DNA of 64,000 bases, taken from an uncultured Clostridium sp. GTDB lineage: Bacteria > Bacillota > Clostridia > TANB77 > CAG-508. Positions 20,085 to 52,781 of the stretch are shown here, one piece after another (within the stretch, counting starts at the first letter, position 1; every line of letters begins with the position of its first letter). The notes under the pieces were generated by a model. The model saw only the letters and a program-made list of their open reading frames with translations. It did no database searches and had not been told where the DNA came from. The stretch lies in NCBI GenBank assembly GCA_900554365.1, contig USGY01000002.1:54136-118135 (forward strand). The letters are read 5' to 3'. The translations under genes were made by a program, and so were the position numbers.

Positions 20085-21413
20085 TTAATATTTTAAATTA
20101 TCTTCTTCTATTATTCTTATATCTGCACCTTTTTCATTTAACTCTTGAGCTTTTGCTTGTTTGCCACCTATCTTTCCAAATTTCCATGCATCGCTGCCAA
20201 CACCTCCAACTATTAAATAATCTAATTTTGATGATACTCCTGCCTTCTCTATTGCACCTAGTTCTTGTAATCTCTTAGATACTTCTTGCTTAGTAGCAGT
20301 CTTAAATTCACCTGTTAGACAAAATGTCTTCCCTTTAAAATCTATATTTTCATCATTATTAAAATCTGGATGTACTATTTCATTAAATATACTAAGAATA
20401 TAATTACTTTCTTCTTCAGTTAAAAATCCATCCTCTAGTACTTTACTTACTTCTAGAAGAACTTTGTCATAAGGATATACATCTTTTAAATAATCATTTT
20501 GCTTTAACCATATATTCAAATTATCTAACTCTTTTTGATTTACTTTTTGATTGCATACAATTCCATCTAATATTCCATTTAATATTTGTAAAGACAACGT
20601 TGATTCACTATACATTTTAGAATTATTTATACTTGTTACTAATTTTTCTAGTTCAATTCTTTCATATTCTGTAATTATATTATCCTCTAAAATTTCTTCT
20701 AATTTATTAATTATTCTATTAAATAATAAATATTGTTTATATAGTCTATTATCTTCCACCCAAGATTTAAGTTTCCCAATTTCTTTATCATCTATTATTC
20801 CATCATAATTAATTCCTTTAATTATTCCATATAATGTATTTATATTTGTTTCTAATTTTGAATCTAAGCTATCCAATACTTTACTTTCAAATTCAAATTT
20901 TTCACAACTTCCAATATCATTATTACAATTTAAATATTCAAATATTTTCTGACTTGCTTTAGCATCTTCTAATGCATTGTGATGATTTTCTAGATTAATA
21001 TTCAACAAATTACATAAATTATTTAAACTATAACTGTTAGTATTAATACAGTTTCTCGATAATTTAAGAGTACAATAATAATTAAATATAGGTACTTTTA
21101 TTTCGTAGCGTTCTAGTGCTTTTGCAATTACTGTTAAATCATAAATAACATTATGACCTATAATAATGTTATCTGATAATAAATCTTTTATATTCTCCCA
21201 ATATTCTTTAAAAGTTGGTGCATCTTTAACATCAGAATAATTTAAACCTGTTATATTACTATTATTTGTATCAAATCTATCCTCTGGATTTATTAATGAA
21301 TACTTTTCATCTACAATCTTATTATCTTTAACAATAATAATTCCTATTGAACATATTGAATTACCTCTTGCATTTGGGTTTTCTATATCAATGCTTATAT
21401 AATCTTTTATCAT
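20085..21413 (-). CDS. DEDDh (DnaQ-like) 3'-5' exonuclease fused to a C-terminal BRCT domain
   Basis: It has Exo I-III motifs (SIDIENPN, HNVIYDL, H..LEDA) and a BRCT fold signature at the C-terminus (FKGKTFCLTGEF...LDYLIVGG). Only 8 nt separate it from gajA. Confidence 0.7.
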   Translation of the reverse strand: MIKDYISIDIENPNARGNSICSIGIIIVKDNKIVDEKYSLINPEDRFDTNNSNITGLNYSDVKDAPTFKEYWENIKDLLSDNIIIGHNVIYDLTVIAKALERYEIKVPIFNYYCTLKLSRNCINTNSYSLNNLCNLLNINLENHHNALEDAKASQKIFEYLNCNNDIGSCEKFEFESKVLDSLDSKLETNINTLYGIIKGINYDGIIDDKEIGKLKSWVEDNRLYKQYLLFNRIINKLEEILEDNIITEYERIELEKLVTSINNSKMYSESTLSLQILNGILDGIVCNQKVNQKELDNLNIWLKQNDYLKDVYPYDKVLLEVSKVLEDGFLTEEESNYILSIFNEIVHPDFNNDENIDFKGKTFCLTGEFKTATKQEVSKRLQELGAIEKAGVSSKLDYLIVGGVGSDAWKFGKIGGKQAKAQELNEKGADIRIIEEDNLKY

Positions 21414-21435
21414 ATTTCATTTCTCCATTCTTTAA

Positions 21436-22254
21436 CTATAATACTTTATTTTCTATATCTTTTTCTTTTATAATCTCCTCTTTATTAACTTCATATCTCA
21501 CTATCCCAATATATTCTCCTTTTAATATGTTAGTAGCAGTATAGTGAACATTTAATATTTGCCTATACCAATTTGATAGTACATCTTCATAATATACAAT
21601 AATATCCATATCATATGGTTCTTTTGAACTTTTTAAAGAGAAGAATTTATTTATTGTTCTCTCTTCTCCTTTTTCAAAAACTTCTAAGGAATAATTTCCT
21701 AATATTCTATATGTTGAATTGTTTATCAGAGGAGATTTAAAATCTACTTTAATATTTTTAATATTATTAAGTCCTATATTTTTTATTGATATATTCAAAC
21801 TATATGCATGTCCATTATCGACATTTGTAATTATTAGTTCTTCAAGTTCGCCTTTTCCCTTATTTTCTGTATCTATAGAGTACTTTAATATTGGCATATT
21901 TTGAACTCGTAAATTTTCTTTATCTCTTTCAATATTGTCCTCATTATTCTTTTTTATCTGTAATATTGTTACAATTACAAGTACTACTGCACTTATTACT
22001 GCAGAAATAATTCCTGCCGAATAATTAGCTAAAAATCCTAACCAGTTTTGAGAATTAACATTAACACTCCAACCTAAGTATGTTGGTATATTATATCTAT
22101 CTAAATAATAAATTACAATTGGTACCATCGACACAAAAAATAACAATATGTATAAACTTTTTTCCAAATCATCTTTGCACTTTTTATAGTTAATATAACA
22201 AAAATTTGCTATAATCCCTAATATTATAATTGTTGTTAATATATTAATTACCAT
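21436..22254 (-). CDS. membrane protein (3 N-terminal transmembrane helices plus a ~170-aa soluble domain), first gene of the Gabija-containing operon
   Basis: A 272-aa ORF, 22 nt upstream of the exonuclease gene on the same strand, with no recognised domain. Confidence 0.4.
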   Translation of the reverse strand: MVINILTTIIILGIIANFCYINYKKCKDDLEKSLYILLFFVSMVPIVIYYLDRYNIPTYLGWSVNVNSQNWLGFLANYSAGIISAVISAVVLVIVTILQIKKNNEDNIERDKENLRVQNMPILKYSIDTENKGKGELEELIITNVDNGHAYSLNISIKNIGLNNIKNIKVDFKSPLINNSTYRILGNYSLEVFEKGEERTINKFFSLKSSKEPYDMDIIVYYEDVLSNWYRQILNVHYTATNILKGEYIGIVRYEVNKEEIIKEKDIENKVL

Positions 22255-22321
22255 ATTTTATACCCCTTATATATATATCTTATTTGTTATAAAAAATTTG
22301 TCGAAACTTGTCTCTTATTAT

Positions 22322-22372
22322 CAAAAAACAAAATAATTCTGTAATATATATTACTATTATTTGGCTTTTCTT
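22322..22372. repeat. AT-rich long-stem hairpin repeat (family member 1 of 3)
   Basis: AAAACAAAATAAT-[loop TCTGTAATATATATTACT]-ATTATTTGGCTTTT. Homologous copies lie at 24311-24364 and 37924-37972. Confidence 0.55.
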
Positions 22373-22443
22373 TTGTTATTTAATTAGTCATTATATTTAA
22401 CTTCTGTTCCATCATCTAAAGTCTTAACTATTTTACTAAAATC

Positions 22444-22569
22444 TTATGCACCTATATGTGCATAATAACTCCCACCATCAATATAACACGATTCACATTT
22501 ACAAGATACTAAATCATGTACACTTTTAGATTCTATTATATCTCCACAAATTAAGCATTTTATTTTCAT
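22444..22569 (-). CDS. small zinc-ribbon protein (41 aa), absent from the 60-aa ORF track
   Basis: The ORF encodes MKIKCLICGDIIESKSVHDLVSCKCESCYIDGGSYYAHIGA. It is preceded by a strong RBS (GAGGAGG, 7-nt spacing) and has a CxxC...CxC..C pattern. Confidence 0.4.
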   Translation of the reverse strand: MKIKCLICGDIIESKSVHDLVSCKCESCYIDGGSYYAHIGA

Positions 22570-22613
22570 AATTATCCTCCTCTCAATTTTTATATCATAA
22601 ATTTAAATTTTTA

Positions 22614-22859
22614 TTACCAGCCATAATATGATCCATATCTATCTAACTTATTATTTTTGTTTTCTAATGATTCTTGATGTTCTCTTTTTCCAAGTATTTC
22701 ATCTTCTTTATCTATTATTGGATCAAACCAATCTGCTTTTTTATTAGCCCATTTAATCCAATCTTTCATTTCGTTCGATAAATTATCTTGACTTGATATA
22801 GCATTAATGTAATTTCTAATTTCACATGCTATTCTATAATCTTCTGCTAAATTTAACAA
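22614..22859 (-). CDS. hypothetical protein
   Basis: An 81-aa ORF of unknown function. Confidence 0.3.
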   Translation of the reverse strand: MLNLAEDYRIACEIRNYINAISSQDNLSNEMKDWIKWANKKADWFDPIIDKEDEILGKREHQESLENKNNKLDRYGSYYGW

Positions 22860-22904
22860 TTTTTTAACTTTCTGTGCCTCATTTTTTTTTGCATTTCTTA
22901 TTTT

Positions 22905-23912
22905 TTATTTTTTTTCTTCTTCCTCTTGATACTTTCTTTCTCTTTCTTCTCTTGCTAACCTTTCAATTTTAACTTCTTCGGATTGTTCATATAGTTTTAT
23001 AATTATATCTCCTAATTTATCTTCTAACTTTACTTTATCTGTTTCTCTTATATATTTTCTATTTCCACAAGTTATTTTCAATTTACCATTATGAACATAA
23101 TCATATTTTCTTATATTAGGTTTAGATGCATATGTAAATACTTTTTTCCTATCTTCGTATTCTAATAGCTGCTTTGCTTCTTCCTTTGTCAATTCATGCT
23201 TAACTTGATCTTTTAATTCTTCTATTTCAAGTTCAACATGCTCATCTCTAATCGTTAATGAAAACTCTTTATTTACTTCTCCACCTAATTCTTCTATAGT
23301 ATAATAAATAGCGCTTAATATTTTCATACATCTATCCTTTTCAAATTTAGATATATTTTCAAAGTATCCTTTTTCTACATAATTATGAATATTATAATAT
23401 GGATTAAGATAGTTTGCTTTTCTTTCTTCTCGTCGTTCTTCTCTTTTCTTGTTTTTATATTCAGTAATTATTTTATGATTTTTCTTATAATTATCTATAT
23501 TTAAATCATAAATAACTTCGGCTACTTTTCTTTTTTCTTCATCTGATAAAAAACTTAAAAGATTAAATTCTGTAACAAATTTATCCTTGTCACTAACTTT
23601 GCTATCAATTAATACTCCACTTACTTTTAATGGTATCTCTACTTCTTTTACTTCAGACTTTGGTAATTCAATAATATCATTTGAAAAATCTAGTCCCATA
23701 TTCTTTTTTGTCCAATATGATGATGATGGATATGGAATGTCATTTTCTTTACATACTTGTACTAATTTTGTATAATTCAAGCCATACTTTTTAGCTACAC
23801 CTGTCAATGAAATTTTCCATATCTCATCATAAAGTCTATTTCTTTCAAATTTCATAGATAAACTATCCATAAAAATCTTCCTTTCCTTCATATTTCTTTT
23901 CTTTATCTTCAT
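22905..23912 (-). CDS. hypothetical protein with a highly charged C-terminal (E/K/R) coiled-coil-like region
   Basis: A 335-aa ORF with no recognisable catalytic motif. Confidence 0.35.
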   Translation of the reverse strand: MKIKKRNMKERKIFMDSLSMKFERNRLYDEIWKISLTGVAKKYGLNYTKLVQVCKENDIPYPSSSYWTKKNMGLDFSNDIIELPKSEVKEVEIPLKVSGVLIDSKVSDKDKFVTEFNLLSFLSDEEKRKVAEVIYDLNIDNYKKNHKIITEYKNKKREERREERKANYLNPYYNIHNYVEKGYFENISKFEKDRCMKILSAIYYTIEELGGEVNKEFSLTIRDEHVELEIEELKDQVKHELTKEEAKQLLEYEDRKKVFTYASKPNIRKYDYVHNGKLKITCGNRKYIRETDKVKLEDKLGDIIIKLYEQSEEVKIERLAREERERKYQEEEEKK

Positions 23913-23945
23913 ATTTTCCTAGCGAAAATGCGAACTCATATAATT

Positions 23946-24320
23946 CTAATTCTCTTGTTCTGCATTTTCGCTTAATATAAAAAGTAAGTCGTCTTTCATT
24001 GATTCAAATTCTTTTATAATAGTTTCTAGATTACTTTCAATATTTTGCACTCTGATTTCAGATATTTTTCCATATTTATAAGCAATTAATCTTTCAGCAA
24101 TTATATGATATGACCAACTTTCTGAAAATCCCCTATCATTTTCCTCATTATGTACTGCAAATCCTATAGGTAATAAATTATTTCTCATTCCTAAGGAAAC
24201 TGCATTAGAAGAAATTCCTAAATAATCTCCTGCAATCTGACATGTTATTTTTGACTTATTCCTTATATCGTCATCTGTATATTTGCTCATAAAAAATCCT
24301 CCTTTAATATAAAAAAGCAA
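23946..24320 (-). CDS. small hypothetical protein, possibly an HTH
   Basis: A 124-aa ORF whose likely true start is the internal MSKYTDDD. It has an HTH-like segment (ITCQIAGDYLGISSNAVSLGMRNN). Confidence 0.3.
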   Translation of the reverse strand: MLFYIKGGFFMSKYTDDDIRNKSKITCQIAGDYLGISSNAVSLGMRNNLLPIGFAVHNEENDRGFSESWSYHIIAERLIAYKYGKISEIRVQNIESNLETIIKEFESMKDDLLFILSENAEQEN

Positions 24321-24364
24321 AATAATATTGTAATATACTTAATTACTCTTTTATTTTGCTTTTC
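24311..24364. repeat. AT-rich long-stem hairpin repeat (family member 2 of 3)
   Basis: AAAAGCAAAATAAT-loop-TTATTTTGCTTTT, located between the R gene end and the upstream small gene. Confidence 0.55.
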
Positions 24365-24390
24365 TTATGTTTAATTCAATATATCTATTA

Positions 24391-26166
24391 TTAAGAAACT
24401 TCTTTTTCCTTCCATTCTTCTATGTATTTTTCTATATTTTTATCCCAAATTTCATAATTTTTACAATTTATTGCTCCTTTGTGAATATATTGTAATAAAT
24501 TATTAAATTGATCTATTTCTAAATTGTTTTGATATGTGTATTCTAATATCTTCATATATTGCCCTATAGTTAAAGGAATAACTGGTACAGGATTTCCCAT
24601 CCAACTTTCTTTATTTAAGATAAAAAATTGCCACATTGTCCTAACATTTATTCTACTTGATATAAACAATCCTGTTACCTTTGTAGTTTTATGTTTTTTT
24701 ATTATATTTAATACGTGATCTATTACTGATGATGCCTCATGTTCCCATTGTAAAACTCCAGTCATTAATGATACTTCTGGTACAATAATATATTTATCAT
24801 TATATAATTCCATATCTGGCGTGTTCCCTGTTCCAGGGGCAAAATTTCTAGGTGATAAATCTTCTTCAATAGTAAAGTTTCTTTTTACATCTTTTTCTCC
24901 ATCAATTGCGACTAGTGATTTCCATGTGTTGCACTCTAGCCATAAAGCAGCCATATCTTCATCACCACTAACAATATCTTCAAACTTCTCAATGATCTCA
25001 TTTCTAATGCTTTCAGTTTTTGAAGTATATTGAATAAATATTTTTTCATTTAAACTTGTAATTTGATCTACTAATTCATTTTCTATAACTTTAAGTTTAG
25101 TATCCTTATTTCTCTTATCAAGTTCTTTATAATATAAATTACTATCATACTTTAAATCAAGTCCATATTTGCTATTATATTCGTCAATTTTTTCTTCTAA
25201 TAATATTATTTTATCAACAATTAAATCTTTACGATTCTTTTCGTTTTCCCATGGAAGTTGAATATTATCATAATCACCAAACCAGTCCATATATTCATCA
25301 AGATTCTCGGTTTTTATATAATCGTAATTATAGAAATTTTTTAACATTTCTATTTTTTTCCTTGCGTATTCTGCTATTCTAACCTTGGTATAATTTCCTC
25401 TTCCTGATATATTAAATAAACCTGTAAATCTTAGCGCTCTATTAATTGCATCGCACATTGTAAAATAAGTTCCTTCTGATTTTCCCTCTAAAGAAAAATA
25501 TTTTTCTGCAATTTTTCTATATAATGCATTACATTTATTACCATCTCTCTTATTTTCAAGAGACAAGTATTCTTTTCTAAACTCTTTTACTGCCTTTAAT
25601 AATTTATCGTATTCTTTCATATCATTACATAGTAATGCAAGACTCATTTCGAAACGATTTATATACTCTAAATCATATACTAAATTTATTATCATCTTTA
25701 ATGGAAATACTGGATTTTCATTTGAACAATTTTTTCCATACCCAGTATTTATAGAAGGAAAATGCATATTTAATAATAATTTCAGAAATATCTCGCTATC
25801 GAAATTACCTTTCGCAATCATTTTCCCGGATTTAGTAACTCTAACTTTTCCATCAGCATCAATAAATCCTAAACCCAAAAATTTATATGTTGCTAAATCA
25901 TTTCTTGCATTACTTTCGCTATCAGCTTCCCCATCAAAATTCCCACTCAAATATTCGTCATATGATAAATTTTTTATGGGAGACTCTTCTATATCTATTT
26001 GCGTATTAAAATAATACTGCCTTCTAATTGGGTGAATAGGCTTCATATTTTTACTTAATTTTTTAAAAGAATAATCCCAATCTTCTCCCTCTAGTTTTTC
26101 AAATGATTTAAACCACTGTATAGTTTTTATAACACTTCTTGGCTTTGTCCTCCAACCCCATGCCAT
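24391..26166 (-). CDS. AlwI-family (N.BstNBI/PleI/MlyI-like) type IIS restriction endonuclease
   Basis: The 591-aa ORF shares blocks that I recall from N.BstNBI: the N-terminal TKSGKMIA block matches TEAGKMLA, and the C-terminal NFTIEEDL...APGTGNTPDMELYNDKYIIVPEV block matches NFVIDEEL...AAGNQPDMEIIYEDFIVLGEV. It sits next to a Dam/DpnM-like methyltransferase. The identification rests on remembered sequence and was not searched. Confidence 0.55.
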   Translation of the reverse strand: MAWGWRTKPRSVIKTIQWFKSFEKLEGEDWDYSFKKLSKNMKPIHPIRRQYYFNTQIDIEESPIKNLSYDEYLSGNFDGEADSESNARNDLATYKFLGLGFIDADGKVRVTKSGKMIAKGNFDSEIFLKLLLNMHFPSINTGYGKNCSNENPVFPLKMIINLVYDLEYINRFEMSLALLCNDMKEYDKLLKAVKEFRKEYLSLENKRDGNKCNALYRKIAEKYFSLEGKSEGTYFTMCDAINRALRFTGLFNISGRGNYTKVRIAEYARKKIEMLKNFYNYDYIKTENLDEYMDWFGDYDNIQLPWENEKNRKDLIVDKIILLEEKIDEYNSKYGLDLKYDSNLYYKELDKRNKDTKLKVIENELVDQITSLNEKIFIQYTSKTESIRNEIIEKFEDIVSGDEDMAALWLECNTWKSLVAIDGEKDVKRNFTIEEDLSPRNFAPGTGNTPDMELYNDKYIIVPEVSLMTGVLQWEHEASSVIDHVLNIIKKHKTTKVTGLFISSRINVRTMWQFFILNKESWMGNPVPVIPLTIGQYMKILEYTYQNNLEIDQFNNLLQYIHKGAINCKNYEIWDKNIEKYIEEWKEKEVS

Positions 26167-26178
26167 GGTTTTTCCTCC

Positions 26179-27310
26179 TTAATAATTTGTTATTAACAAA
26201 TGTTCAACATCTTTATCATTTCTATTTTGAAAACTTACAAGATATTTTTTATCAAATGTTTTTATCCTAAATTCTTTTGTATTATATAAATTATAAATAA
26301 AGTCAGTATTCTTTATAATCAACATTATATTTGCTTTTGTATTTTTTAAATATTCACATAATCTCACTTGATCATTCTTGGCAAACTCATTTTTTGCATA
26401 TGTCGAAAATTCAGTATCATATGGGGGATCTAGAAAAATAAAATCTCCTTTTTTAGGTTTTACCTCTTTAAGAAAGTTTTCAAAATCATCACAATATATT
26501 TTTGTATTTGTCATATATTCTTTTATTTTCTTTGAACTTATATAGTTAATCTTTTTTATAAATTCTTTTCTATTATAGCTTATCCCTCCATAAGGTACAT
26601 TAAACTTTCCACTTTTATTATATCTAAACATAGACGCATAGCAAAATTCTCTTATAAAATAAAATATTGCTGTATAAAATGGTATACTTATATTTAAATT
26701 TTCAGCTTCGTTATACAAATGTCTAAAATGCATATAAAATGCACTTTTAAATGCACATTCAATATTATCAAGAGTATCTTTTTCACTCATCTTTTTTCTT
26801 TGAATTTCTATTTTATACATTCTATTCATTTTAGAAATTAGGTTTTTTACAATTTCATTTATAAAATTATCTATTTCAATATTAAATTCTGCAGATAATA
26901 TTCCATTAAATTCTTTAGCATGTCTTATTACAAATGCATATATTCTATCATTAAATTGTTGCTTAATCTCTTTTGTATTTTTATTATCAAGCTGTTTACA
27001 ATACTCTCTATACATTTTTAATAGCTCATCTGCATTATTTTCAACAACGCCTTCTAATAATACCCAGTTTTTATAAATAGCTTTTAATTTAGTAAAAAAT
27101 TCTTTATCTTGATTTTTGATACATTTATATAAATTTATTAATTCTTCAGATTTGTCATTTATAACTGAATTTTCAATATTTATGTCAAAATAAACTGCTC
27201 CGACCTCCTACAAAAGGCTCTATATATCTATCTATTCTACGTGGCAAATTTCTTTTTATATATGGCAATTCCTTTTCTTTTCCACCAGCCCATTTTATTA
27301 TTGGATTCAT
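26179..27310 (-). pseudogene. DpnM/Dam-like N6-adenine DNA methyltransferase (GATC class, D12 family) disrupted by a +1 frameshift near 27200-27205
   Basis: The N-terminal 42 codons (MNPIIKWAGGKEKELPYIKRNLPRRIDRYIEPFVGGRSSLF*) match the DpnM/Dam motif I (KWAGGK...EPFVGGG) and then hit TGA. The next frame continues AVYFDINIENSV...NSVINDKSEELINLYKCIK... into the annotated 278-aa ORF, which has FNVPYG and FLDPPY (motif IV) and ends ITNY as DpnM does. Removing one C from GGTCGGAGC restores FVGGGAVYFD. Confidence 0.75.
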
Positions 27311-27457
27311 AAAATTACTCTCCTTTGTTCCAATTATTTATTTTATATCACAAAATACATTTTTTAACAACAAATTATCAATTATTTCGTAATTAATTTT
27401 TATTTATCATATATTATCAAACATTTGTTTTTATTGCAATAGTTTTTATGAGATTTT

Positions 27458-28081: not shown

Positions 28082-28099
28082 TTTCGTCACTTCCTTGTT

Positions 28100-28275: not shown

Positions 28276-28415
28276 GATAAAAAACTTATTAATTTTTATC
28301 AAAATATTTTGAAAAAAGTTCAAATTTTGAGTTTAGAAATTTGAACTTTTTTCTTTACTTTTGTCTTTAAATATACTATAATAAATTTAGTTTTTGAATT
28401 AAGTTAGCATTTAGT

Positions 28416-44612: not shown

Positions 44613-44751
44613 TTTTATTATAAAAATTAGGACAAATATGTACAAAAATTTATACTTTCTTGTCCTAATTTTTTCATTCATTTCTATTTACTTTTTTGAA
44701 AAAATCAATTATAATTTTTATATAAAATATTTAAAAAAGTTATCTTTTTAG

Positions 44752-46063: not shown

Positions 46064-46077
46064 ATCCTCCCTTCTTT

Positions 46078-46293
46078 CTAGCAAGATTCTTCAATAGAAT
46101 CATTTTCTTTTTTGCTTAGATAAATATCTAAGGCTTCTTTTCTGAATAAAATTCTTTTCCCAACTCTAGAGCAAGGAATTTGTTTTCTTTTAACTAATTG
46201 CGTAATTAACCAATATGAAATTCCTAAATATTCTGCTGCTTCTTTTGCAGTTAGAGTTGTTCTTTTAATGTTATCTAGTGCCATTTCTTTCAC
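46078..46293 (-). CDS. xis: excisionase-family HTH DNA-binding protein (Xis-like, element B)
   Basis: The 71-aa ORF has LTAKEAAEYLGISYWLITQLVKRKQIPCSRVGKRILF. Confidence 0.7.
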   Translation of the reverse strand: MKEMALDNIKRTTLTAKEAAEYLGISYWLITQLVKRKQIPCSRVGKRILFRKEALDIYLSKKENDSIEESC

Positions 46294-46474
46294 CTCCTAA
46301 TATTTTTATAATTGTAGTTGACATATATAAATTATTATGGTATTATTTTGTCATACAATTATTATTTTTGTTTTTGATTGTATGGCTCTTTTATATAATA
46401 TTTTTCTGATATATGTAACCTTACAATTGAAAAAAGTTCAAAAATTTTTAATTTGTAGATATTAGGAGGTAAAG

Positions 46475-47470
46475 ATGTCACTATATAATATTGCTTTCGA
46501 TACTAATAATAAAACAGAATGTTTAAATCACTTTTCTATTAAGAAAAAGAAAGGATTTATATTCAAATCTGTAAATCGTTGTGAAATAAGACCTCTTGGT
46601 AGCATTCTTTTAGATTTTCTCAATATAGATATTGAAAACGGTGAAGATATGGTTAACTTTATAGCTAATTACTGTTTAGAGGATTTATTATTCAAATTGG
46701 CTAAAAAATCCAAATTAAATATATCTAAATATTATAAAAATGATAACTTTTACATAACAGAACAGGCATTATCAGACTTATTCTTTACCTTACAATCTGA
46801 ATATGAAGATGACTTTGAATTTTATCAAGATATATTTATTAATCTTATAACAAGTGAAAAAGAAAATATAAGCCCTAAAGAATTCGATAAAATCGAGGCT
46901 GATTTTAGAGCAGAATTTCCTGATTTATTTGAAGATGAATCTGCTAATTTTGATTTAATAAACTTAAGTTATAGGATAAATGATTTAACATTAGATTTTA
47001 CTATGGATGACTTTTACTATTTTCATAAAGAACTTAATCTGCCTAAAAGTATTCCATATTCTTTTAGAACTGATGATTATCTTAATGTGTTATTTATCTC
47101 ATATAAACAGTTATTGTCTTTAGATAGTAATATTAAGATAAAAAAATGTGCTAATTGTGGTAAATACTTTATTCCAAAAACTATGCATGATACTAAATAT
47201 TGCGATGAAATATTTAAAGATAATAAAACATGTAAAGAATTTGGTAGAGAACTAGCCTATAAAGAAAGTTTAGCGCAGAAGCCTATTCTTAAAGCTTATA
47301 GAAGTAGATATCAAACTCTTTCAAAGCAAGCATCTGAAAGAGAAAAACATGAAATGTATGAATATTTCAAAAAAGAAGGTCCTACAATTAGGAAAAAATT
47401 TATTGATGGAGAAATTACAGCAAAAGAATTTCAAGACTGGATTAATAGTACTAAAGTTAGGAAAAAATAA
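46475..47470 (+). CDS. conserved hypothetical protein with a C-terminal Cys4 zinc-ribbon (element B paralog)
   Basis: KKCANCGKYFI...YCDE...CKEFG. It lies immediately upstream of int. Confidence 0.45.
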   Translation: MSLYNIAFDTNNKTECLNHFSIKKKKGFIFKSVNRCEIRPLGSILLDFLNIDIENGEDMVNFIANYCLEDLLFKLAKKSKLNISKYYKNDNFYITEQALSDLFFTLQSEYEDDFEFYQDIFINLITSEKENISPKEFDKIEADFRAEFPDLFEDESANFDLINLSYRINDLTLDFTMDDFYYFHKELNLPKSIPYSFRTDDYLNVLFISYKQLLSLDSNIKIKKCANCGKYFIPKTMHDTKYCDEIFKDNKTCKEFGRELAYKESLAQKPILKAYRSRYQTLSKQASEREKHEMYEYFKKEGPTIRKKFIDGEITAKEFQDWINSTKVRKK

Positions 47471-47522
47471 TTTAATATATAAAATCCTTGCCATAGGTAT
47501 GCTGAAAGGAGGTGAAAAAGTA

Positions 47523-48698
47523 ATGGCAGGGTATCTTGAAAAGAGAGGCAAACGCTCTTGGAGATTAATTGTATCACATGGTTATGACAGCTATGGTAAC
47601 AGAATTAGATATACCAAAAGTATTAAAGCAAATAGTAGACGTGAGGCAGACAAAGAACTTGTAAACTTTGTTTACGAGATAGAAAATGGTATTGTTTTGC
47701 AAAACTCTTCAATGACATTTAAGGAATTTACAGATTTATGGGCTAAAAATTATGGTGAAAAAGAATTAGCACCTAAAACTTATGAAAGATATAAAGGAAT
47801 GCTAAAATCACGAATTATCCCCTACTTCGGTCATTATAAGTTATGCAATATAAAACCAACTCACATTATGAGTTTTTACGATTATCTTTCAAAAGATCAT
47901 CAACTTAAAAGATGTAAAAATCATAATGGAAAAACTGTAATGAAGGGCTTATCCTCTAAAACAATACTAGAACACCATCGTTTACTACATGCTATGTTAC
48001 AAAATGCTGTATATTGGCAAATACTACCTTATAATCCAGCAGACAGAGTAAAACCACCTAAGCATGAAAGACCTCAAATTAAATACTATGATGATGTTCA
48101 ATGTAAACAACTACTAGAGGCATTAGAAAATGAAGAAATTAAATTTCAAACTATTGTTATATTAACATTGTTTACTGGTATGCGTAGAGGCGAAGTATTG
48201 GGCTTAGAATGGTCAGATATCGATTTTAAAGAAGGTTTTGTTAATATTACTAAGTCAAGTCAATATATTGCAGATAAAGGCATTTTCGTAAAAGACCCAA
48301 AGACTCGTAGTTCAATTAGGAAAGTCGGAATACCTGATATTGTAATAAATATGCTAAATAAGTATAAAACTTGGTATGAACAAGAAAAAGAAAATTGTGG
48401 CAACTTATGGGTTAACTCAAATAGACTATTCGTTACTTGGAATGGTAAGCCAATGCATCCTGATACTGTTACAGATTGGTTTCGTTCTTTTATTGAAAAG
48501 AACAATTTACCGAAAATTACTTTCCATGGTTTGCGACACACAAATGCTACTTTGCTTATATCTAAAAATGTAGATGTAGCTGTTGTAGCGTCAAGATTAG
48601 GGCATGCTCAAATAACTACTACCTTAAACTTTTATGTGCATCCAGTAGAAGCTCATAATAAAGAGGCTGGTAATGTTTTAGAGAAAATGCTCGTATAA
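47523..48698 (+). CDS. int: tyrosine-type site-specific integrase, element B
   Basis: The start is trimmed to MAGYLEKRGK, which aligns with the element-A integrase MAGSIEKRGK and has the same GAAAGGAGGTG RBS. Catalytic motifs: HGLRHT...LGHAQITTTLNFYVH. Confidence 0.9.
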   Translation: MAGYLEKRGKRSWRLIVSHGYDSYGNRIRYTKSIKANSRREADKELVNFVYEIENGIVLQNSSMTFKEFTDLWAKNYGEKELAPKTYERYKGMLKSRIIPYFGHYKLCNIKPTHIMSFYDYLSKDHQLKRCKNHNGKTVMKGLSSKTILEHHRLLHAMLQNAVYWQILPYNPADRVKPPKHERPQIKYYDDVQCKQLLEALENEEIKFQTIVILTLFTGMRRGEVLGLEWSDIDFKEGFVNITKSSQYIADKGIFVKDPKTRSSIRKVGIPDIVINMLNKYKTWYEQEKENCGNLWVNSNRLFVTWNGKPMHPDTVTDWFRSFIEKNNLPKITFHGLRHTNATLLISKNVDVAVVASRLGHAQITTTLNFYVHPVEAHNKEAGNVLEKMLV

Positions 48699-48804
48699 AA
48701 ACTCTTTTCAAAATTTCTCGAAAATTACTTTTTTTGATTTTCAAAGTTTAATATAAATTAGCAAGGCTAAAGTATGCTATTTAATACATAAAAATGTAGG
48801 GACT

Positions 48805-48823
48805 GTCCCCAATTTGTCCCCAC
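48805..48823. repeat. arm-type repeat GTCCCCAATTTGTCCCCAC (right arm of element B)
   Basis: A direct tandem repeat of the xCCCCAxT type. It mirrors the left-arm GTCACCAATTTGTCACCAAT. Confidence 0.5.
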
Positions 48824-48897
48824 TTCTGTGAAAATAGATTTTTAGTCAAAAAAATAAGAGTCCACAATCTCTTGCGACTCTAATAAAATTTTTGGTT

Positions 48898-48942
48898 GCG
48901 GAGGTAAGACTCGAACTTACAACCTTCGGGTTATGAGAAATG
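48898..48942 (-). repeat. att core: tRNA-fMet 3' half, copy 3
   Basis: TGGTTGCGGAGGTAAGACTCGAACTTACAACCTTCGGGTTATGAG differs from the 34621 copy at two or three positions. Again no pairing 5' half follows. Confidence 0.7.
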
Positions 48943-49076
48943 GAATGTATTTTTCGTTTTTTCTATTATGTTTTAAAGAGTGCTATTCTGTACAGTTACA
49001 GCATAACACTCTTTTTATTATTTACTAATAATTCTATTATTTTTTAGGTCGGTAGGGGTATTTTTAGGGGTAAAAT

Positions 49077-49709
49077 CTATTTTTTCAAATAATTCTTTGA
49101 ATCATATCCATTACAGATAATATCAGACACATAATCCATTGTTTTTATAATAGTATCAATAAATTCCATCAAAAGATTTTCATCTACTCTATAACTATTT
49201 TCTCCATGTGCAATACCATTTCGGTATTGCAATAATTTATTTAATCCATCTTTAATTTTTCTATCTTCTATTTCTTTAAAATTAAGTTCTCTTAATAATT
49301 TATTTAGTCTATCGCTATTTATATTTTGGATTGCTTTGTCATTAAAATTAATCGTTTTATCATTATTATTAATATCTTGCAATAATTGTTCAACCAATTT
49401 TTCTTTATTTTGTATTGATTTTATATTTTCTTTAAAGCAATTATATTTTTTTTCAATTTTATGAACCAATAATCTAATTGATATATCATTAAAAGTTAAA
49501 TCTAATTGATTTACAAATTTCATATATATCCTTATAGCATTTTTTACAAATCCCTCTAAGTAAGCATAAATCATTGGCACCATGCTCTTGTAATATATGT
49601 CTTTTTCCTCTTCTATAAATTCATATCTATGTGGCAGTAATTTTATTCTTGTTGTTTCCCTTATAACCCAATCTATTTCTAAATCAATTTCATCTTTTAT
49701 TGTTATCAT
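49077..49709 (-). CDS. HEPN-domain protein (Abi-like / MAE_28990-type, Rx4H motif)
   Basis: The 210-aa ORF has the C-terminal LLQYRNGIAHGE R-x4-H HEPN signature. A 2-nt gap separates it from the upstream DUF262 gene. Confidence 0.6.
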   Translation of the reverse strand: MITIKDEIDLEIDWVIRETTRIKLLPHRYEFIEEEKDIYYKSMVPMIYAYLEGFVKNAIRIYMKFVNQLDLTFNDISIRLLVHKIEKKYNCFKENIKSIQNKEKLVEQLLQDINNNDKTINFNDKAIQNINSDRLNKLLRELNFKEIEDRKIKDGLNKLLQYRNGIAHGENSYRVDENLLMEFIDTIIKTMDYVSDIICNGYDSKNYLKK

Positions 49710-49711
49710 TA

Positions 49712-50776
49712 TTATTCTTCCTTTGGCTCAAATACTTTTAAAGCAATATTTACCTTTTTCTGTAATCTACTCTTACTTCCTGAATTACTTCCCATATTAT
49801 ATGAAAAATCTTTATTCGACTTTAATTCTTCTATCTTTTGCTTCATTATTTCGATATTTTCTTCATAATATTCTATATTTCTCGAAACTCCTATCATAAC
49901 ACCATCAAAATAACTACTTGAAAACTGTTGGTTAGAAGATAAGAAAACTTTATCCCCAACATTATTGTATAATAATGTTATAACTCTTATAAATATTTGT
50001 TTCATAAATTCAAAGTCTAGCACTTTTTCTCCACTTGTAACTTCCTTCATATATTTCGTTAAGAATTGTGACACATTTCCATCTATATTTTCATATGAAT
50101 TATATAATGCTGTAAATCTCAATACTAATTCTTGCAAATATAATTCATCTTTCTTATTTTTGCTTAAATTAGTTATTGTTTCAAATTCACTATTATTAGA
50201 AAGTTCACTTAAATAATCATTAAAATCACTACTATTCCCTCTAAATATACAATTTCTAATTTCTTGTTCTGTTAGTGCAGAACCACCAGTATTAAGTCTA
50301 TTGAATAATTCATATCTCATATCAAGTTTACTATCCCACTTTATGATTTCGACTCTGCAATATGCTCTTTTTATATTTCTTTGAAATATTTGTGGAAGTT
50401 TATCTTTGTTGTACCCATCTAACTCTGGTACTAAATCTCCAGCATCCATTATCCAATTATTTTTATCACCGTCTTTAAGTAATCCAAAAAATGATAATAC
50501 AGTTGATAATCTTTGCAATCCATCTACTAATTCCCATTTACCTTCTTTGTCTTCTGCAACAAATATTGGTGGGATTGGTATCCCTAATAAAATTGATTCA
50601 ATAAATCTGGTTTTTTGAAAATTTTTCCATCTAAATAATCTTTGAAACTCTGGAGATATTATTAAATCGCCACTTTGATACATATTTATAATTTCTCCAT
50701 AAGACATATCTAGCCTATCCGTTGTTAAATTATTTCTTAAATCTTTTATTCTTTGTTCTAATTTTTCATCATCCAT
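49712..50776 (-). CDS. DUF262 (ParB/Srx-fold, GmrS-like N-terminal domain) protein
   Basis: SPEFQR.FRW and VDGLQRL (DGQQR-type) motifs. A 354-aa ORF. Confidence 0.7.
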   Translation of the reverse strand: MDDEKLEQRIKDLRNNLTTDRLDMSYGEIINMYQSGDLIISPEFQRLFRWKNFQKTRFIESILLGIPIPPIFVAEDKEGKWELVDGLQRLSTVLSFFGLLKDGDKNNWIMDAGDLVPELDGYNKDKLPQIFQRNIKRAYCRVEIIKWDSKLDMRYELFNRLNTGGSALTEQEIRNCIFRGNSSDFNDYLSELSNNSEFETITNLSKNKKDELYLQELVLRFTALYNSYENIDGNVSQFLTKYMKEVTSGEKVLDFEFMKQIFIRVITLLYNNVGDKVFLSSNQQFSSSYFDGVMIGVSRNIEYYEENIEIMKQKIEELKSNKDFSYNMGSNSGSKSRLQKKVNIALKVFEPKEE

Positions 50777-50797
50777 TATAACAATTCCTCCTATATT

Positions 50798-51814
50798 TTA
50801 TTCTTCATTTTCTCTTAAAACTTTTTCAACTTCTTTTATTAATTGTTCTTTATCAGGAATGCAATATGTATATTCTGAAGCAAATATATTGTTATTTAAA
50901 CCTTCTAATGAGTACTCTGCAACAATCTCGTCTTTTTCTGCACATAATACAATTCCAATTGGCTTATTATCTTCTTCTGTATTTACCTCCTTTTCGTAAT
51001 AATTCAAGTACATATTCATTTGTCCCATGTTTTCTGGTTTTAGATGTCCTATCTTCAAATCAATTAAAACATAACATTTTAATATTTTATTATAAAATAC
51101 CATATCTACATAGTAATGTGTATTGCCTAATGTTACTCTTTGTTGTGAACCAACAAACATAAACCCTTTTCCCAATTCAAGTAAAAAATCTTCAATATGT
51201 TTAATCAATTTATACTCTAAATCTTTTTCTAATATAGGTTTATTTTCTGGTATTCCTAAAAATTCAAACACATATGGATCTTTTAATATATCCTCAGGCT
51301 TTTCTATTACTTGTCCTTCCTTAGCCAATTTTAAAACTTTTTCTTTATTTGCTTTTCCATCAGATAATAATAATCTTTCATAAAGTGATGATTCTACTTG
51401 TCTTTTTAATTCTCTAACTGCCCATTTAGAATTTATACATTCTTTTTCATAAAAGTCTCTTTTTTCTTTATCTTTAATAATTACCAATTCACAATAATGT
51501 GACCATGATAATTTGCCAGATGTCTGGCATTTTGGATAATATTGATAAAATAGTCTCATATTTTGTAAATTCGTTCGAGAAAAGCCTTTTCCTAATTCAT
51601 TTTTTAATTTTTTAGATAGATTTATCAATAATCCTTTTCCATATTCTGCTTTGCTTTTCCCTTTTTGTTCTTCCTCTATAATTTTTCTTCCTATATCCCA
51701 ATAGCACTTTATTTGTTCATTATTCATTTCATCTTTTAATTTTTCTCTAGACTTTATCACTAATTCTGTAATCTCTTTTGATAAATTATCTACAATTAAT
51801 TCATTATTATCCAT
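50798..51814 (-). CDS. YhcG-like PD-(D/E)xK nuclease (DUF1016 family)
   Basis: The C-terminal PDDEXK core is YYVDMVFYN...YVLIDLK. The start is trimmed to MDNNELIVDNL, typical of the YhcG N-terminal helix. It overlaps the stop of the upstream exonuclease gene by 8 nt. Confidence 0.65.
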   Translation of the reverse strand: MDNNELIVDNLSKEITELVIKSREKLKDEMNNEQIKCYWDIGRKIIEEEQKGKSKAEYGKGLLINLSKKLKNELGKGFSRTNLQNMRLFYQYYPKCQTSGKLSWSHYCELVIIKDKEKRDFYEKECINSKWAVRELKRQVESSLYERLLLSDGKANKEKVLKLAKEGQVIEKPEDILKDPYVFEFLGIPENKPILEKDLEYKLIKHIEDFLLELGKGFMFVGSQQRVTLGNTHYYVDMVFYNKILKCYVLIDLKIGHLKPENMGQMNMYLNYYEKEVNTEEDNKPIGIVLCAEKDEIVAEYSLEGLNNNIFASEYTYCIPDKEQLIKEVEKVLRENEE

Positions 51815-52781
51815 CAGATTTCCTCCATTTCGTAAATATTTTATCATGTTTTTCCAATTTTGTATATATTTTCCACAAATTTGCCAGACGTCTGTCAAAT
51901 TCAATTTTCATTTTTAAATTTTCTGCTTTTAATAATTTTGAACTTTTCTTTCCTCTCAAAATAGGATTATAATCATTATTTCCTAATATTAAATAATTCG
52001 TTTCTTTATTTACGCCATCTTGACAATGTCCACCCAAATCAGTAATAAGCTGCATTGCTTCCTTTCTCAACATTTTTTCTAATGTTCCAGTAATAGCAAC
52101 ATACTTATCATAAAATAAATTTTCTTTGTCAAATTCTGTATTATTAGCAGTAACATCACTTGCTTTAAATCCAGAATGATTTTGGGTTTTACATGCATTT
52201 TTAAAATTATCTATGTTATGATATTTTTCTGTGGCAAGTTTCTCTAAATTATTATACACTTCAATTGTCATTCTAACATCTTTCAAAGATCTATGACTTC
52301 CTACTGCATTAATATTATAATAATCTGCTAAATCGCTTAATCTGTGATGCTTAAGTTCGGGCAAAAGCCTTCTGCTTAATCTTAATGTATCAATAAAATC
52401 ATTAGTAATAGGCTTCATGTTAAATTTCACCAAATTATCATATATAAAATTGATATCAAAATTCACATTGTGTCCCAGAATAATTGAATCACCTATAAAT
52501 TCTATAAATTTAGATAATACTTCATCTATGGATGGTGATTTTTTTACCACTTCATTAGTAATACCTGTTAATTTAGAAATAAACTCATTTATTTCATACT
52601 CTGGTTTTACCAAAGTGTTAAATACTTGAACTTCTCTTCCATTTTCAATTTTTATGGCTCCTATTTCTATTATTTCATCATACATAGGGTCTAAGCCTGT
52701 TGTTTCAATATCAAAGGCAATATATTTATTAGGAAATTCTATTAAACTTTTTCCTTTTTTTTTCCTTAAAGACATCAACAT
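51807..52781 (-). CDS. DEDDh (DnaQ-like) 3'-5' exonuclease fused to a C-terminal BRCT domain (second copy of this architecture)
   Basis: FDIETTGLD (Exo I), HNVNFD (Exo II), H..LKD (Exo III), and a C-terminal BRCT (VAITGTLEKMLRKEAMQLITDLGG...NYLILG). Confidence 0.7.
   Translation of the reverse strand: MLMSLRKKKGKSLIEFPNKYIAFDIETTGLDPMYDEIIEIGAIKIENGREVQVFNTLVKPEYEINEFISKLTGITNEVVKKSPSIDEVLSKFIEFIGDSIILGHNVNFDINFIYDNLVKFNMKPITNDFIDTLRLSRRLLPELKHHRLSDLADYYNINAVGSHRSLKDVRMTIEVYNNLEKLATEKYHNIDNFKNACKTQNHSGFKASDVTANNTEFDKENLFYDKYVAITGTLEKMLRKEAMQLITDLGGHCQDGVNKETNYLILGNNDYNPILRGKKSSKLLKAENLKMKIEFDRRLANLWKIYTKLEKHDKIFTKWRKSDG

Follow-up and report, generated by a model that had tools for sequence, protein, structure and literature searches.

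Two genes in the window, the 64,000-nucleotide stretch of DNA analysed here, combine a DEDDh exonuclease with a BRCT domain, and each is followed on the minus strand by a different set of defence genes. This raises the question of why one kind of gene is present twice and what it does. A first-pass annotation had judged the architecture unusual and read its double occurrence as the sign of a shared role in two defence operons. The two genes, which we call A and B, and their parts are:

20085-21413, minus strand: gene A, 442 aa, DEDDh exonuclease, two TerB-like repeats and BRCT
20919-21413, minus strand: gene A exonuclease domain, residues 1-165 (Pfam RNase_T, conserved catalytic residues, Foldseek)
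20373-20867, minus strand: gene A middle region, residues 183-347, two helical TerB-like repeats of ~80 aa each
20088-20342, minus strand: gene A BRCT, residues 358-442, RFC1/LigA class (Pfam, profile matches, model)
51807-52781, minus strand: gene B, 324 aa, DEDDh exonuclease and BRCT with a replaced C-terminal end
52212-52727, minus strand: gene B exonuclease domain, residues 19-190, PolC-exonuclease-like
51906-52127, minus strand: portion of the gene B BRCT that is still homologous, residues 219-292 (Pfam BRCT, locus alignments)
51810-51905, minus strand: non-homologous 32-residue tail of gene B (alignment, tblastn end point, sequence, L024 gene call)

An open reading frame check found both genes with the coordinates, strand and length given, and their combination of an intact DEDDh exonuclease with a BRCT was borne out by Pfam, family profiles and conserved catalytic residues. 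The RNase_T match in gene A covers residues 14-158 (E 6.9e-22), and the DEDDh residues D9, E11, D92, H145 and D150 are conserved across an alignment of 50 diverse family members. Foldseek matched this domain to the exonuclease domains of PolC, DnaQ, DinG and ExoX. For gene B the match spans residues 21-176 (E 1.3e-44), with D24, E26, D109, H163 and D168 conserved in the family, and the top match of the B-type family profile is the PolC exonuclease domain (2p1j, 2.8e-40). Approximately 180 additional residues, holding the two TerB-like repeats, separate the exonuclease of gene A from its BRCT. The repeat motif is apparent in the family consensus, with weak Pfam matches to TerB in 5 and to DUF533 in 3 of 21 family members; a PDB sequence search found no relative of this region, which is all-helical in the AlphaFold2 model (pLDDT mostly 83-95).

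The C-terminal domains were confirmed as BRCT by profile search for both families and, for gene A, by structure prediction. Pfam places the BRCT at residues 358-413 of gene A (24.3 bits; gathering score 21.3) and at residues 219-293 of gene B (E 4.4e-10). The AlphaFold2 model of gene A, made from a diverse alignment and with a mean pLDDT of 85.6, has a canonical beta-alpha-beta-beta-alpha-beta-alpha BRCT at residues 363-441. LigA and RFC1 supply the best solved relatives of both BRCTs in the profile searches: the C-terminal profile of the gene A family matches the RFC1 BRCT (2k6g) at 3e-9 and the LigA BRCTs (1l7b, 2owo) at ~2e-8, and the BRCT of gene A matches the LigA C-terminus at 1e-8. Both domains contain a T-G motif with a basic residue seven positions on (T367, G368 and K375 in gene A; T231, G232 and R239 in gene B); in RFC1 these residues bind the 5'-phosphate. 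The two BRCTs are of the RFC1/LigA class, known to bind DNA ends and nicks, and this fits the earlier idea that the domain senses DNA ends or phosphates. The genes are clearly divergent, as had been noted, pairwise alignment giving 28% identity between the exonuclease domains and 29% between the BRCTs, and most likely represent two diverged subfamilies of one gene kind.

The surroundings of the two genes were compared with loci of a census (L numbers) gathered via the exonuclease gene itself. The features concerned are:

16575-20076, minus strand: Gabija downstream of gene A, GajA 18346-20076 (likely ATG 20064) and GajB 16575-18365
21436-22254, minus strand: 272-aa gene, often but not always a neighbour of gene A, here ~20 nt upstream of it
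20070-21433, minus strand: conserved gene A cassette, DNA 85-88% identical to L009, L014 and L016 (blastn), with unrelated flanks
51906-52832, minus strand: conserved gene B cassette (blastn against L001, L005 and L019), includes a promoter-like site
49077-51814, minus strand: cassette downstream of gene B, with YhcG/DUF1016 nuclease, DUF262 protein and RiboL-PSP HEPN protein

The gene order that had suggested two operons is physically correct. It runs 272-aa gene, A, GajA, GajB at one site and B, YhcG, DUF262, HEPN at the other, with short or overlapping gaps, and PADLOC recognises the Gabija genes of the window (GajA 7e-176, GajB 1e-192). However, with such variable neighbours neither gene is integral to the adjoining operon. 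Gene A loci diverge right after the stop codon, and gene A is found at 83-88% identity with five other downstream arrangements, one of them nothing. GajAB follows in the window, a Gabija with HEPN in L014, a Drt8 reverse transcriptase with PDC-S06 in L009, AAA_15 with Mrr-nSTAND3 in L113 and a 735-aa gene with Mrr-nSTAND3 in L118, and no gene separates gene A from a p96 remnant in L112. Between the window and L014 gene A is 85% identical, whereas the Gabija proteins are only 24-26% identical; gene A and Gabija have therefore not co-evolved. The 272-aa gene, with no match in Pfam or PADLOC, recurs with gene A in L112-L123 (81-90% identity), and in L001 a 56%-identical relative comes after a DpnII RM system. 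For gene B, DNA identity of 79-86% is restricted to 52832-51906 and both flanks are unrelated to those of its relatives (blastn). What comes downstream of B-type genes is most commonly a recombinase, otherwise DpnII RM, Drt8 or OLD-like genes. Going by these boundaries, A and B are sharply bounded cassettes at a spot where downstream defence modules get exchanged.

Gene B had also been presented as a working partner of its downstream operon, a view contradicted by its 3' end, which is truncated by that very cassette. Homology to relatives ends at residue 292, window position 51906, in the alignment and as the tblastn end point, and 80 of 80 genome loci align to gene B no further than residue 289-294, mostly 291-292. 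The final BRCT strand and helix are replaced by 32 unrelated residues, a tail encoded by the 5' leader of the incoming cassette, in which lie a TTGACA hexamer (-35-like), a ribosome-binding site (GGAGG) and, at 51814, the start codon of YhcG. The last ~20 BRCT residues of gene B were lost to this YhcG cassette, and the truncated BRCT may be non-functional. A promoter-like site precedes gene B at 52837-52809, with a terminator further upstream at 53105-53131. Within the cassette, the YhcG/DUF1016 nuclease is PDC-S02 of PADLOC and the DUF262 protein resembles NsnA and PD-T4-2_A.

The double occurrence itself is explained by the larger structure of the locus, an array of tandem integrative elements downstream of spo0A:

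15910-15925, plus strand: att core ACCTTCGGGTTATGAG, left end of the tandem array
15926-34614: integrative element 1, carries gene A, backbone genes match L001 and L005
34615-34676, plus strand: att repeat with tRNA-Met(CAT) 3' half, junction of elements 1 and 2
34677-48892: integrative element 2, backbone as element 1, other cargo
48893-48954, plus strand: att repeat with tRNA-Met 3' half, junction of element 2 and the gene B block

The att core occurs in three exact copies in the window against 0 expected by chance, and both integrases are adjoined by tRNA-Met 3' halves. The elements share a backbone of integrase, DUF6076, HTH_17, replisome organiser, DnaC-like and p96 genes, which also matches L001 and L005. 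In window order, element 1 reads p96, GajB, GajA, gene A, the 272-aa gene, two unknown genes, AlwI RM, p224, DnaC-like, replisome organiser, HTH_17, DUF6076, two ThsB genes with a membrane protein, and integrase, placing gene A in its cargo. The cargo of element 2 comprises a type IIG RM, GIY-YIG, HTH-Fic and an SF1 helicase, and no exonuclease-BRCT gene is among its genes. Just beyond element 2 comes the four-gene block that contains gene B, by our inference what is left of an older element. The gene kind is thus present twice because related tRNA-Met-half elements piled up in tandem at one att site, and no shared role in two operons is needed to explain it.

Nor is the architecture unusual. 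NCBIfam PRK06195 has an equal exonuclease-BRCT layout, at least 417 species genomes, besides plasmids and annotated phages, have B-type genes, and the A-type is represented by 502 cluster representatives at E <= 1e-30. A site-specific recombinase lies within the locus sequence in 40 of 79 species-level B-type loci and within 5 kb in 35 of the 79, usually 20-2200 bp downstream on the same strand; adjoining genes include ImmA/IrrE, S24 repressors, AbiEii, PDC-S06, OLD-like genes and relaxases. In phi2958PVL (S. aureus) and IPP62 (S. pneumoniae) the gene sits between repressor and integrase. A repressor-integrase (lysogeny) module is the usual B-type setting across species; a Methanosphaera homologue and two loci beside ligA are without defence or mobile-element context. 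That the family recurs beside defence genes was upheld, and the PADLOC candidate PDC-S48 covers the gene A family. The exonuclease-BRCT gene is a widespread mobile-element accessory gene, already flagged as a defence candidate, although a literature search found no experiment on any family member.

The explanation we favour blends an autonomous cassette with defence by resection, and as a whole we give it a probability of roughly 0.55. Its first part, that the A/B kind is a stand-alone, horizontally shuffled accessory gene of integrative elements duplicated by tandem accretion, we hold with considerable confidence. Its second part, which casts the function as defence through nick- or end-directed resection, is tentative, at slightly short of even odds, the defence role being based on genomic context. 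The most likely, if unproven, role would be that of an autonomous nick- or end-directed 3'-5' exonuclease restricting foreign DNA. Like its counterparts in LigA and RFC1, the BRCT would dock where a nick, gap or recessed end presents a 5'-phosphate, the exonuclease would resect the facing 3'-OH strand, and foreign DNA with free ends or unsealed nicks, whether incoming or replicating, would be damaged. Annealed cohesive ends, rolling-circle intermediates and strands just transferred are candidate targets, and the integrated element itself would be spared. Expression from a prophage repressor-integrase operon would then protect the lysogen, as superinfection defence. Since a nick-directed exonuclease would endanger the Okazaki fragments of the host, some control must exist.

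It is unlikely, but deserves some weight, that the gene serves the life cycle of the mobile element and not defence, through replication proofreading, processing of the nicked or transferred strand after the relaxase, help in integration or excision, or a ssDNA signal for repressor cleavage and induction. The gene lies directly 3' of a relaxase gene in L001-L008 and L029/L030, the PolC proofreading domain is closest to the exonuclease domain, replisome organiser and DnaC-like loader genes are part of the elements, and prophage copies adjoin ImmA/IrrE, S24 repressors and integrases. A mycobacterial DnaQ homologue with equal exonuclease-BRCT layout acts in replication fidelity. However, element 2 has the same backbone without such a gene, and in gene A elements the gene sits amid defence cargo at a great distance from the replication genes. 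The whole window is without a relaxase of the L001/L005 type, a gene placed with the repressor in a lysogenic operon is expressed when the element is quiescent rather than replicating, and K139-type relatives wholly lack the nuclease.

We also consider it unlikely that the gene is a functional accessory of the downstream system, either widening the nicks of TOPRIM nickases (GajA, other OLD-family) into lethal gaps, or trimming or policing DNA made by Drt8 reverse transcriptases, in the manner of host SbcB for DRT10. The same-strand gap to the next gene is 9-27 nt in the window, L009, L014, L019, L113 and L118; OLD/ABC-ATPase genes come next in the window, L014, L113 and L037/L038; and A- and B-type genes both precede Drt8 reverse transcriptases, which are 51% identical to each other. 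This tight spacing and these recurring neighbours leave room for functional coupling. PADLOC models of reverse-transcriptase-associated SbcB and helicase match gene B weakly, and DRT10 and DRT4 products are controlled by host exonucleases. Against such a role, copies of gene A at 83-88% identity adjoin five unrelated systems or none, without co-evolution with Gabija, which by definition consists of two genes and works as such. No exonuclease lies upstream in two more distant Drt8 loci, one of them with only ~1 kb of upstream sequence, and across species the commonest downstream neighbour is a recombinase. The most likely reading is that neither gene A nor gene B is a subunit of its adjoining system, Gabija or YhcG-DUF262-HEPN.

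A counter-defence factor shielding the mobile element in a new host, for example by degrading host-made DNA or signalling intermediates, is very improbable. The carriers are mobile elements, phages and plasmids, and anti-defence genes often sit next to the defence cargo of mobile elements, but in established lysogens the gene shares a transcript with repressor and integrase and, going by gene order, would be distal to the expected leading region in relaxase-bearing elements. A DNA-binding BRCT suits DNA ends better than small-molecule signals, and we saw no similarity to any known anti-defence family. That the genes are host housekeeping DnaQ/PolC paralogues near defence genes by chance, as names such as 'DNA polymerase III subunit epsilon' given to relatives, weak NCBIfam matches to epsilon and PolC families and the ligA beside two species loci might suggest, was checked and is scarcely credible, given equivalog scores far under all cut-offs (PRK06195 174 and 103 against 373, dnaQ_proteo 57 and 96 against 223), carriage by phages and plasmids, and variable locations inside or beside att-repeat-bounded elements among recombinases, repressors and defence genes.

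Among known systems, the single-gene PADLOC candidate PDC-S48 is matched by gene A end to end (HMM PDLC05027, E 3.6e-34, residues 17-440 to profile 21-401 of 411), whereas its match to gene B is confined to the exonuclease domain. PDC candidates were chosen for lying within BREX, DISARM or type I RM loci, and the main text describing them contains none of the terms 'S48', 'PDC-S', 'exonuclease' and 'BRCT' (Payne et al., bioRxiv 10.1101/2024.01.29.577857). Gene A is similarly embedded among defence systems. The phage genes phi2958PVL gp05, IPP62_00002 and Campylobacter CJIE4 'dnaQ' have the same two-domain layout, cover 91-97% of the B-type query and lie on integrative elements near an integrase, but they are only 27-47% identical, and the phage gene sits between repressor and integrase whereas the window genes sit in defence cargo. 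Their annotations conflict (DNA ligase, exonuclease, Pol III epsilon), and no functional study of these three was found in the literature. Orf2 of Vibrio phage K139, annotated as BRCT domain-containing, has homology to residues 188-437 of gene A (26% identity, E 4e-19) and so represents its TerB-like and BRCT half, without the exonuclease domain. A second relative lacking that domain comes after an HTH repressor. Orf2 is part of a mapped lysogenic operon, PL (cI-orf2-glo-int), and shares its transcript with the repressor and the exclusion gene glo; the K139-family paper checked describes no function for it, and, unlike gene A, it comes from a P2-like phage of a Gram-negative host.

The PolC exonuclease domain and DnaQ/epsilon have the DEDDh fold and motifs in common with A and B, and PRK06063/PRK06195 are proofreading-type layouts that include the mycobacterial DnaQ with BRCT, that of PRK06195 equalling the exonuclease-BRCT of A and B. 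Unlike proofreading exonucleases, A and B fall below every equivalog cut-off, are borne by mobile elements at variable positions and have no polymerase partner encoded nearby. Gabija, a GajA OLD-family nickase with a GajB UvrD-like helicase, is complete, on the same strand and directly 3' of gene A in the window and L014, yet it is a two-gene system, and gene A also turns up alone or ahead of four other sets of downstream genes. The BRCTs of LigA and RFC1 recruit a ligase or clamp loader to nicks and ends, whereas in A and B the domain is joined to a degradative exonuclease, and the predicted outcome is therefore the opposite.

The first-pass annotation had described two genes in the window, here called A and B, as fusions of a DEDDh exonuclease to a C-terminal BRCT domain:

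20085-21413, minus strand, gene A, 442 aa
51807-52781, minus strand, gene B, 324 aa

The domain assignments held for both genes. An RNase_T/DnaQ-like exonuclease domain (Pfam RNase_T, 7e-22 for gene A and 1e-44 for gene B) and a BRCT domain (24.3 bits for gene A against a gathering score of 21.3; 40.1 bits for gene B) score above the Pfam thresholds in each protein. Both proteins also carry the residues that define the DEDDh superfamily, an Exo I D-x-E, an Exo II D and an Exo III H-x4-D within an RNase_T/DnaQ fold, and the catalytic positions (D9, E11, D92, H145 and D150 in gene A; D24, E26, D109, H163 and D168 in gene B) are kept across their respective families. Foldseek returned matches to the exonuclease domains of PolC, DnaQ and ExoX. 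The two proteins share 28% identity over their exonuclease domains and 29% over their BRCTs. A housekeeping PolC/DnaQ paralogue, uniformly present and unlinked to defence, is not what we found, because all NCBIfam epsilon and PolC equivalog scores fall far under their cut-offs (PRK06195, 174.4 for A and 103.5 for B against 373; TIGR01406 dnaQ_proteo, 57.5 and 96.4 against 222.7). The exonuclease-BRCT family is neither housekeeping nor uniformly placed.

The AlphaFold2 model of gene A built from a diverse alignment has a mean pLDDT of 85.6 and shows the full, canonical beta-alpha-beta-beta-alpha-beta-alpha BRCT topology at residues 363-441, with pLDDT mostly 81-94, bearing out the predicted C-terminal fold. 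This model supersedes an earlier one made from a shallow alignment (83-92% identity), which had a pLDDT of 63.8 and an unreliable BRCT. A profile of the A-family C-terminus matched the BRCT domains of RFC1 (2k6g, 3e-9) and LigA (1l7b, 2e-8; 2owo, 3e-8). The B-family profile matched the exonuclease domain of PolC (2p1j, 2.8e-40) and the RFC1 BRCT (2ebu/2k6g, 3e-6), and it is this profile match, together with the Pfam score, that supports a BRCT in gene B. From these sequence matches both domains are assigned to the RFC1/LigA, DNA-binding class of BRCTs, with those of RFC1 and LigA as the closest apparent relatives. A T-G motif with a basic residue at +7 is conserved in both (T367-G368-K375 in A, T231-G232-R239 in B), which we take to be involved in binding phosphate.

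Roughly 180 residues, overlooked in the first-pass annotation, separate the two domains of gene A and consist of two helical repeats of about 80 aa each that share a common motif. Among 21 diverse members of the A family, five matched Pfam TerB (PF05099; best E 4.9e-4) and three matched DUF533 (best E 2.1e-5), all weakly. Gene A itself gave no match to TerB-clan models, and the PDB held no sequence relative of this region. With weak hits in part of the family, the repeats may be TerB-like.

The window is AT-rich, with a G+C content of about 25-29%, and the spo0A gene that it carries places it on a chromosome of Clostridia type. It holds an array of mobile elements, and the following features locate the boundaries of these and the neighbours of gene B:

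15910-15925, att site
34615-34676, att site
48893-48954, att site
54928-55746, spo0A
First of three genes after gene B, YhcG/DUF1016 nuclease, PADLOC candidate PDC-S02
After gene B, DUF262 protein resembling NsnA and PD-T4-2_A
After gene B, RiboL-PSP HEPN protein

A 16-nt core, ACCTTCGGGTTATGAG, occurs in three exact copies in the window, at 15910, 34644 and 48922, where none would be expected by chance. Tyrosine integrases, DUF6076 genes, replisome-organiser/DnaC-like pairs and the small backbone gene p96 are each present twice in the window; p96 had no matches in a viral contig collection. Together, the core repeats and the duplicated backbone genes define two tandem integrative elements, at approximately 15.9-34.6 kb (element 1) and 34.7-48.9 kb (element 2). 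The two core copies that lie beside integrases extend into the 3' half of tRNA-Met(CAT), and no intact tRNA gene was found at the array ends or in the window; it is the elements themselves that bring the tRNA-Met halves, and the att site downstream of spo0A at which the array sits is therefore apparently a secondary or degraded one. Element 1 carries gene A as cargo, between the att repeats and together with the backbone (integrase, DUF6076, HTH_17, Phage_rep_org_N, DnaC-like and p96). No exonuclease-BRCT gene is present in element 2. Gene B and its three downstream genes sit just outside the att site of element 2, beside host-side genes and spo0A and with no backbone genes of their own, and this block is probably the remnant of an older, third element.

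Beside the integrase of element 1, the cargo slot at 31242-32900 is occupied by a pair of ThsB-type TIR genes and a gene for a 158-aa membrane protein; no ThsA could be recognised there, and the same slot in a related element, L005, holds ThsB and a ThsA_Macro gene. In element 2 the cargo (35152-43682) comprises a 1269-aa type IIG restriction-modification enzyme with N6_Mtase, Eco57I and Methylase_S domains, a GIY-YIG/DUF4357 protein, an HTH-Fic protein and a 946-aa SF1 helicase. In this element family the integrase is constantly accompanied in the backbone by a DUF6076 gene (30118-31155 and 46475-47470 in the window); our literature search found no paper mentioning DUF6076.

Downstream of gene A lies a complete Gabija system (PADLOC, GajA 7e-176 and GajB 1e-192); upstream come a 272-aa gene, two further genes with no assigned function, an AlwI restriction-modification pair and then the replisome organiser and DnaC-like loader. 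Homologues of gene A are numerous at 83-92% identity. DNA identity with these loci does not extend beyond 21433-20070; it starts 20 nt ahead of the start codon and ends 15 nt past the stop codon. What lies downstream of gene A and of its homologues at 83-88% identity takes six different forms.

Genes downstream of gene A in the window and of its homologues at five other loci
Window: Gabija (GajA, GajB)
L014: Gabija only 24-26% identical, and a HEPN protein
L009: Drt8 reverse transcriptase and PDC-S06
L113: AAA_15 ATPase and Mrr-nSTAND3
L118: 735-aa protein and Mrr-nSTAND3
L112: nothing before a p96 remnant

The upstream side is variable too, with the 272-aa gene at some loci and an AbiL pair at others. 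Since the downstream systems differ and the Gabija partners are only about 25% identical, gene A is not a conserved, co-inherited component of Gabija. A crossover inside gajA, suggested by blastn extension into the 5' end of gajA at L014, was dropped because the N-terminal proteins are dissimilar. The 272-aa protein (21436-22254) has no Pfam or PADLOC match and lies about 20 nt upstream of gene A in the window and at A-type loci L112-L123 (81-90% identical); a 56%-identical relative in the B-type locus L001 follows a DpnII restriction-modification system. We also observed an AT-rich stretch of some 110 nt, with a T-run after a hairpin, that recurs between defence cassettes in the window (22273-22385, 24300-24386 and 37924-37984) and in related elements (L001 13617-13685 and 14624-14683; L005 14088-14188; L009 9858-9974; L014 9868-9976). 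It looks like a shared terminator/promoter junction and could supply homology for cassette swapping.

More distantly, 502 A-type representatives were recovered at E <= 1e-30 from a library clustered at 50% identity, many of them full length at 30-47% identity and others shorter, one-repeat forms. A gut siphovirus protein is a full-length match. Orf2 of Vibrio phage K139 is homologous to residues 188-437 of gene A, which cover the repeats and BRCT; in the phage record, orf2 is mapped as part of the PL lysogenic operon (cI-orf2-glo-int). Proteins consisting solely of TerB-like repeats and a BRCT, with no exonuclease, occupy the same post-repressor slot of lysogeny operons at L111 (4926-5831, K139 orf2) and L131 (6001-6903, after an HTH repressor). 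A full-length homologue in a Methanosphaera (archaeal) assembly (L124, 8001-9347) lies amid housekeeping genes with no obvious defence or mobile neighbours.

For gene B, homology with every relative ends at residue 289-294, mostly 291-292, corresponding to window position 51906, a feature that the first-pass annotation had overlooked. The last strand and helix of the BRCT (GQDIEIISENVFYDII in relatives) are swapped for 32 unrelated residues, which are the leader of the next gene, with a TTGACA hexamer, a GGAGG ribosome-binding site and the YhcG start codon, the latter at 51814 and overlapping the gene B stop codon. Insertion of the YhcG cassette therefore took place within the 3' end of gene B. 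Promoter scans of the AT-rich window DNA gave no excess over shuffled controls, and we used them solely for one promoter-like site, at 52837-52809, on the edge of the gene B cassette. Gene B is a truncated member of a widespread mobile-element exonuclease-BRCT family. The idea that it is a core chromosomal gene serving as an integration target was rejected, because its homologues lie inside mobile elements after a relaxase and the window holds no displaced 3' fragment elsewhere.

Homologues of gene B at 74-83% identity occur in the same integrative element family, in the order integrase, variable cargo, DUF6076, HTH_17, replisome organiser, DnaC-like, small gene, relaxase, exonuclease-BRCT, DpnII restriction-modification, variable cargo, p98 and TnpV, and DNA identity between the window and the B-type loci is confined to 52832-51906. 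Neither a relaxase of the type in L001 and L005 nor TnpV is present in the window, so following a relaxase is not a general rule for this gene. In another lineage, a Drt8-type reverse transcriptase and an ABC ATPase come after a 65%-identical homologue. Scanning one genome per species placed B-type relatives in at least 417 species. At the 79 best loci with a callable gene, a serine or tyrosine recombinase was found within the examined stretch at 40 and within 5 kb at 35, typically 20-2200 bp downstream on the same strand. The immediate neighbours, counted at 150 aa or more among 104 proteins, included serine recombinases (7), tyrosine integrases (6), ImmA/IrrE proteases (5), AbiEii (4), and S24 repressors, AAA_13/PDC-S06, OLD/GajA-like proteins and relaxases (3 each). 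In the annotated phages phi2958PVL of S. aureus and IPP62 of S. pneumoniae the full architecture lies between repressor and integrase, and it is also found in Campylobacter CJIE4 prophages, streptococcal satellites and plasmids. The link of the B-type family to recombinases and immunity modules, at prophage and element ends, is stronger than its link to defence genes.

Gene A belongs to a kind of gene already flagged by a defence-candidate screen. It matches the PADLOC model for PDC-S48 (HMM PDLC05027, E 3.6e-34) over residues 17-440, against profile positions 21-401 of 411. The match of gene B is limited to residues 19-192 (profile 5-179), the exonuclease part only, and gene B is therefore not a full-length member. 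The PDC systems are 145 candidates picked for their embedding within BREX, DISARM or type I restriction-modification loci (Payne et al., bioRxiv 10.1101/2024.01.29.577857). Our literature search found PDC-S48 mentioned in no paper, and searches on PDC-S48, DUF6076, exonuclease with BRCT in anti-phage contexts, K139 orf2 and TerB with BRCT returned no functional study of any family member; gene A is a new member of this candidate group.

We conclude that genes A and B are autonomous single-gene cassettes of integrative mobile elements, and that they do not belong to the Gabija and YhcG operons. The link to defence genes proposed in the first-pass annotation is real; membership of those two operons is not. 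The architecture occurs twice in the window because related elements accreted in tandem at one att site.

How such a cassette might work is suggested by its parts: an intact DEDDh site, an RFC1/LigA-class BRCT with its T-G motif and +7 basic residue, carriage on mobile elements and placement in lysogeny-expressed operons. The BRCT would dock at 5'-phosphorylated nicks or recessed ends and the exonuclease would resect the opposing 3' strand, such that unsealed or linear foreign DNA would be destroyed and the integrated element would be safe. A broader proposal, to which we give roughly one chance in five, is that the exonuclease-BRCT proteins and their repeat/BRCT-only relatives form a wide class of lysogen and mobile-element immunity factors acting as an "anti-ligase": on incoming DNA the BRCT would compete with LigA, either for 5'-phosphorylated nicks or for cohesive-end junctions, and the exonuclease would widen these nicks to gaps. 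In defence islands the protein would also amplify damage by nickases such as GajA, making it a shared helper module and not a mere bystander.

Of the competing explanations, a role as an accessory of neighbouring nickases or of Drt8 keeps some weight, given the short gaps to the next gene, the recurrence of OLD/ABC-ATPase neighbours and the position of both subfamilies ahead of related Drt8 reverse transcriptases. Host exonucleases gate the products of DRT10 and DRT4. The Drt8-type enzymes in question are 51% identical to each other and begin 25-27 nt downstream of the exonuclease gene (L009 10001-12979, A-type; L019 10001-12615, B-type; also L126-L128). The more distant Drt8 loci L129 and L130 show no exonuclease upstream, in one of them over about 1 kb of available sequence, and a metagenome scan for conserved pairing gave five loci only; the pairing may be functional or merely reflect a shared hotspot. 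The other two rivals are that the protein serves the element's own replication, transfer or induction, or that it is a counter-defence factor.

Taken as stated, the earlier claim would have implied a new multi-nuclease defence design. What the evidence indicates is simpler and still useful. The gene is very widespread and is a marker of cargo and lysogeny regions in prophages and integrative elements, from Firmicutes phages and Campylobacter prophages to elements of gut Clostridia, with a nuclease-less form in Vibrio K139-type phages. Related elements accreted in tandem can give the appearance of one module recurring in different operons, which calls for caution in guilt-by-association assignments. 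The exonuclease-BRCT candidate family would be a sensible subject for experiments. Should it restrict DNA by recognising nicks or 5'-phosphates, it would provide cheap single-gene immunity and would tell self from non-self by DNA topology instead of by sequence or modification.
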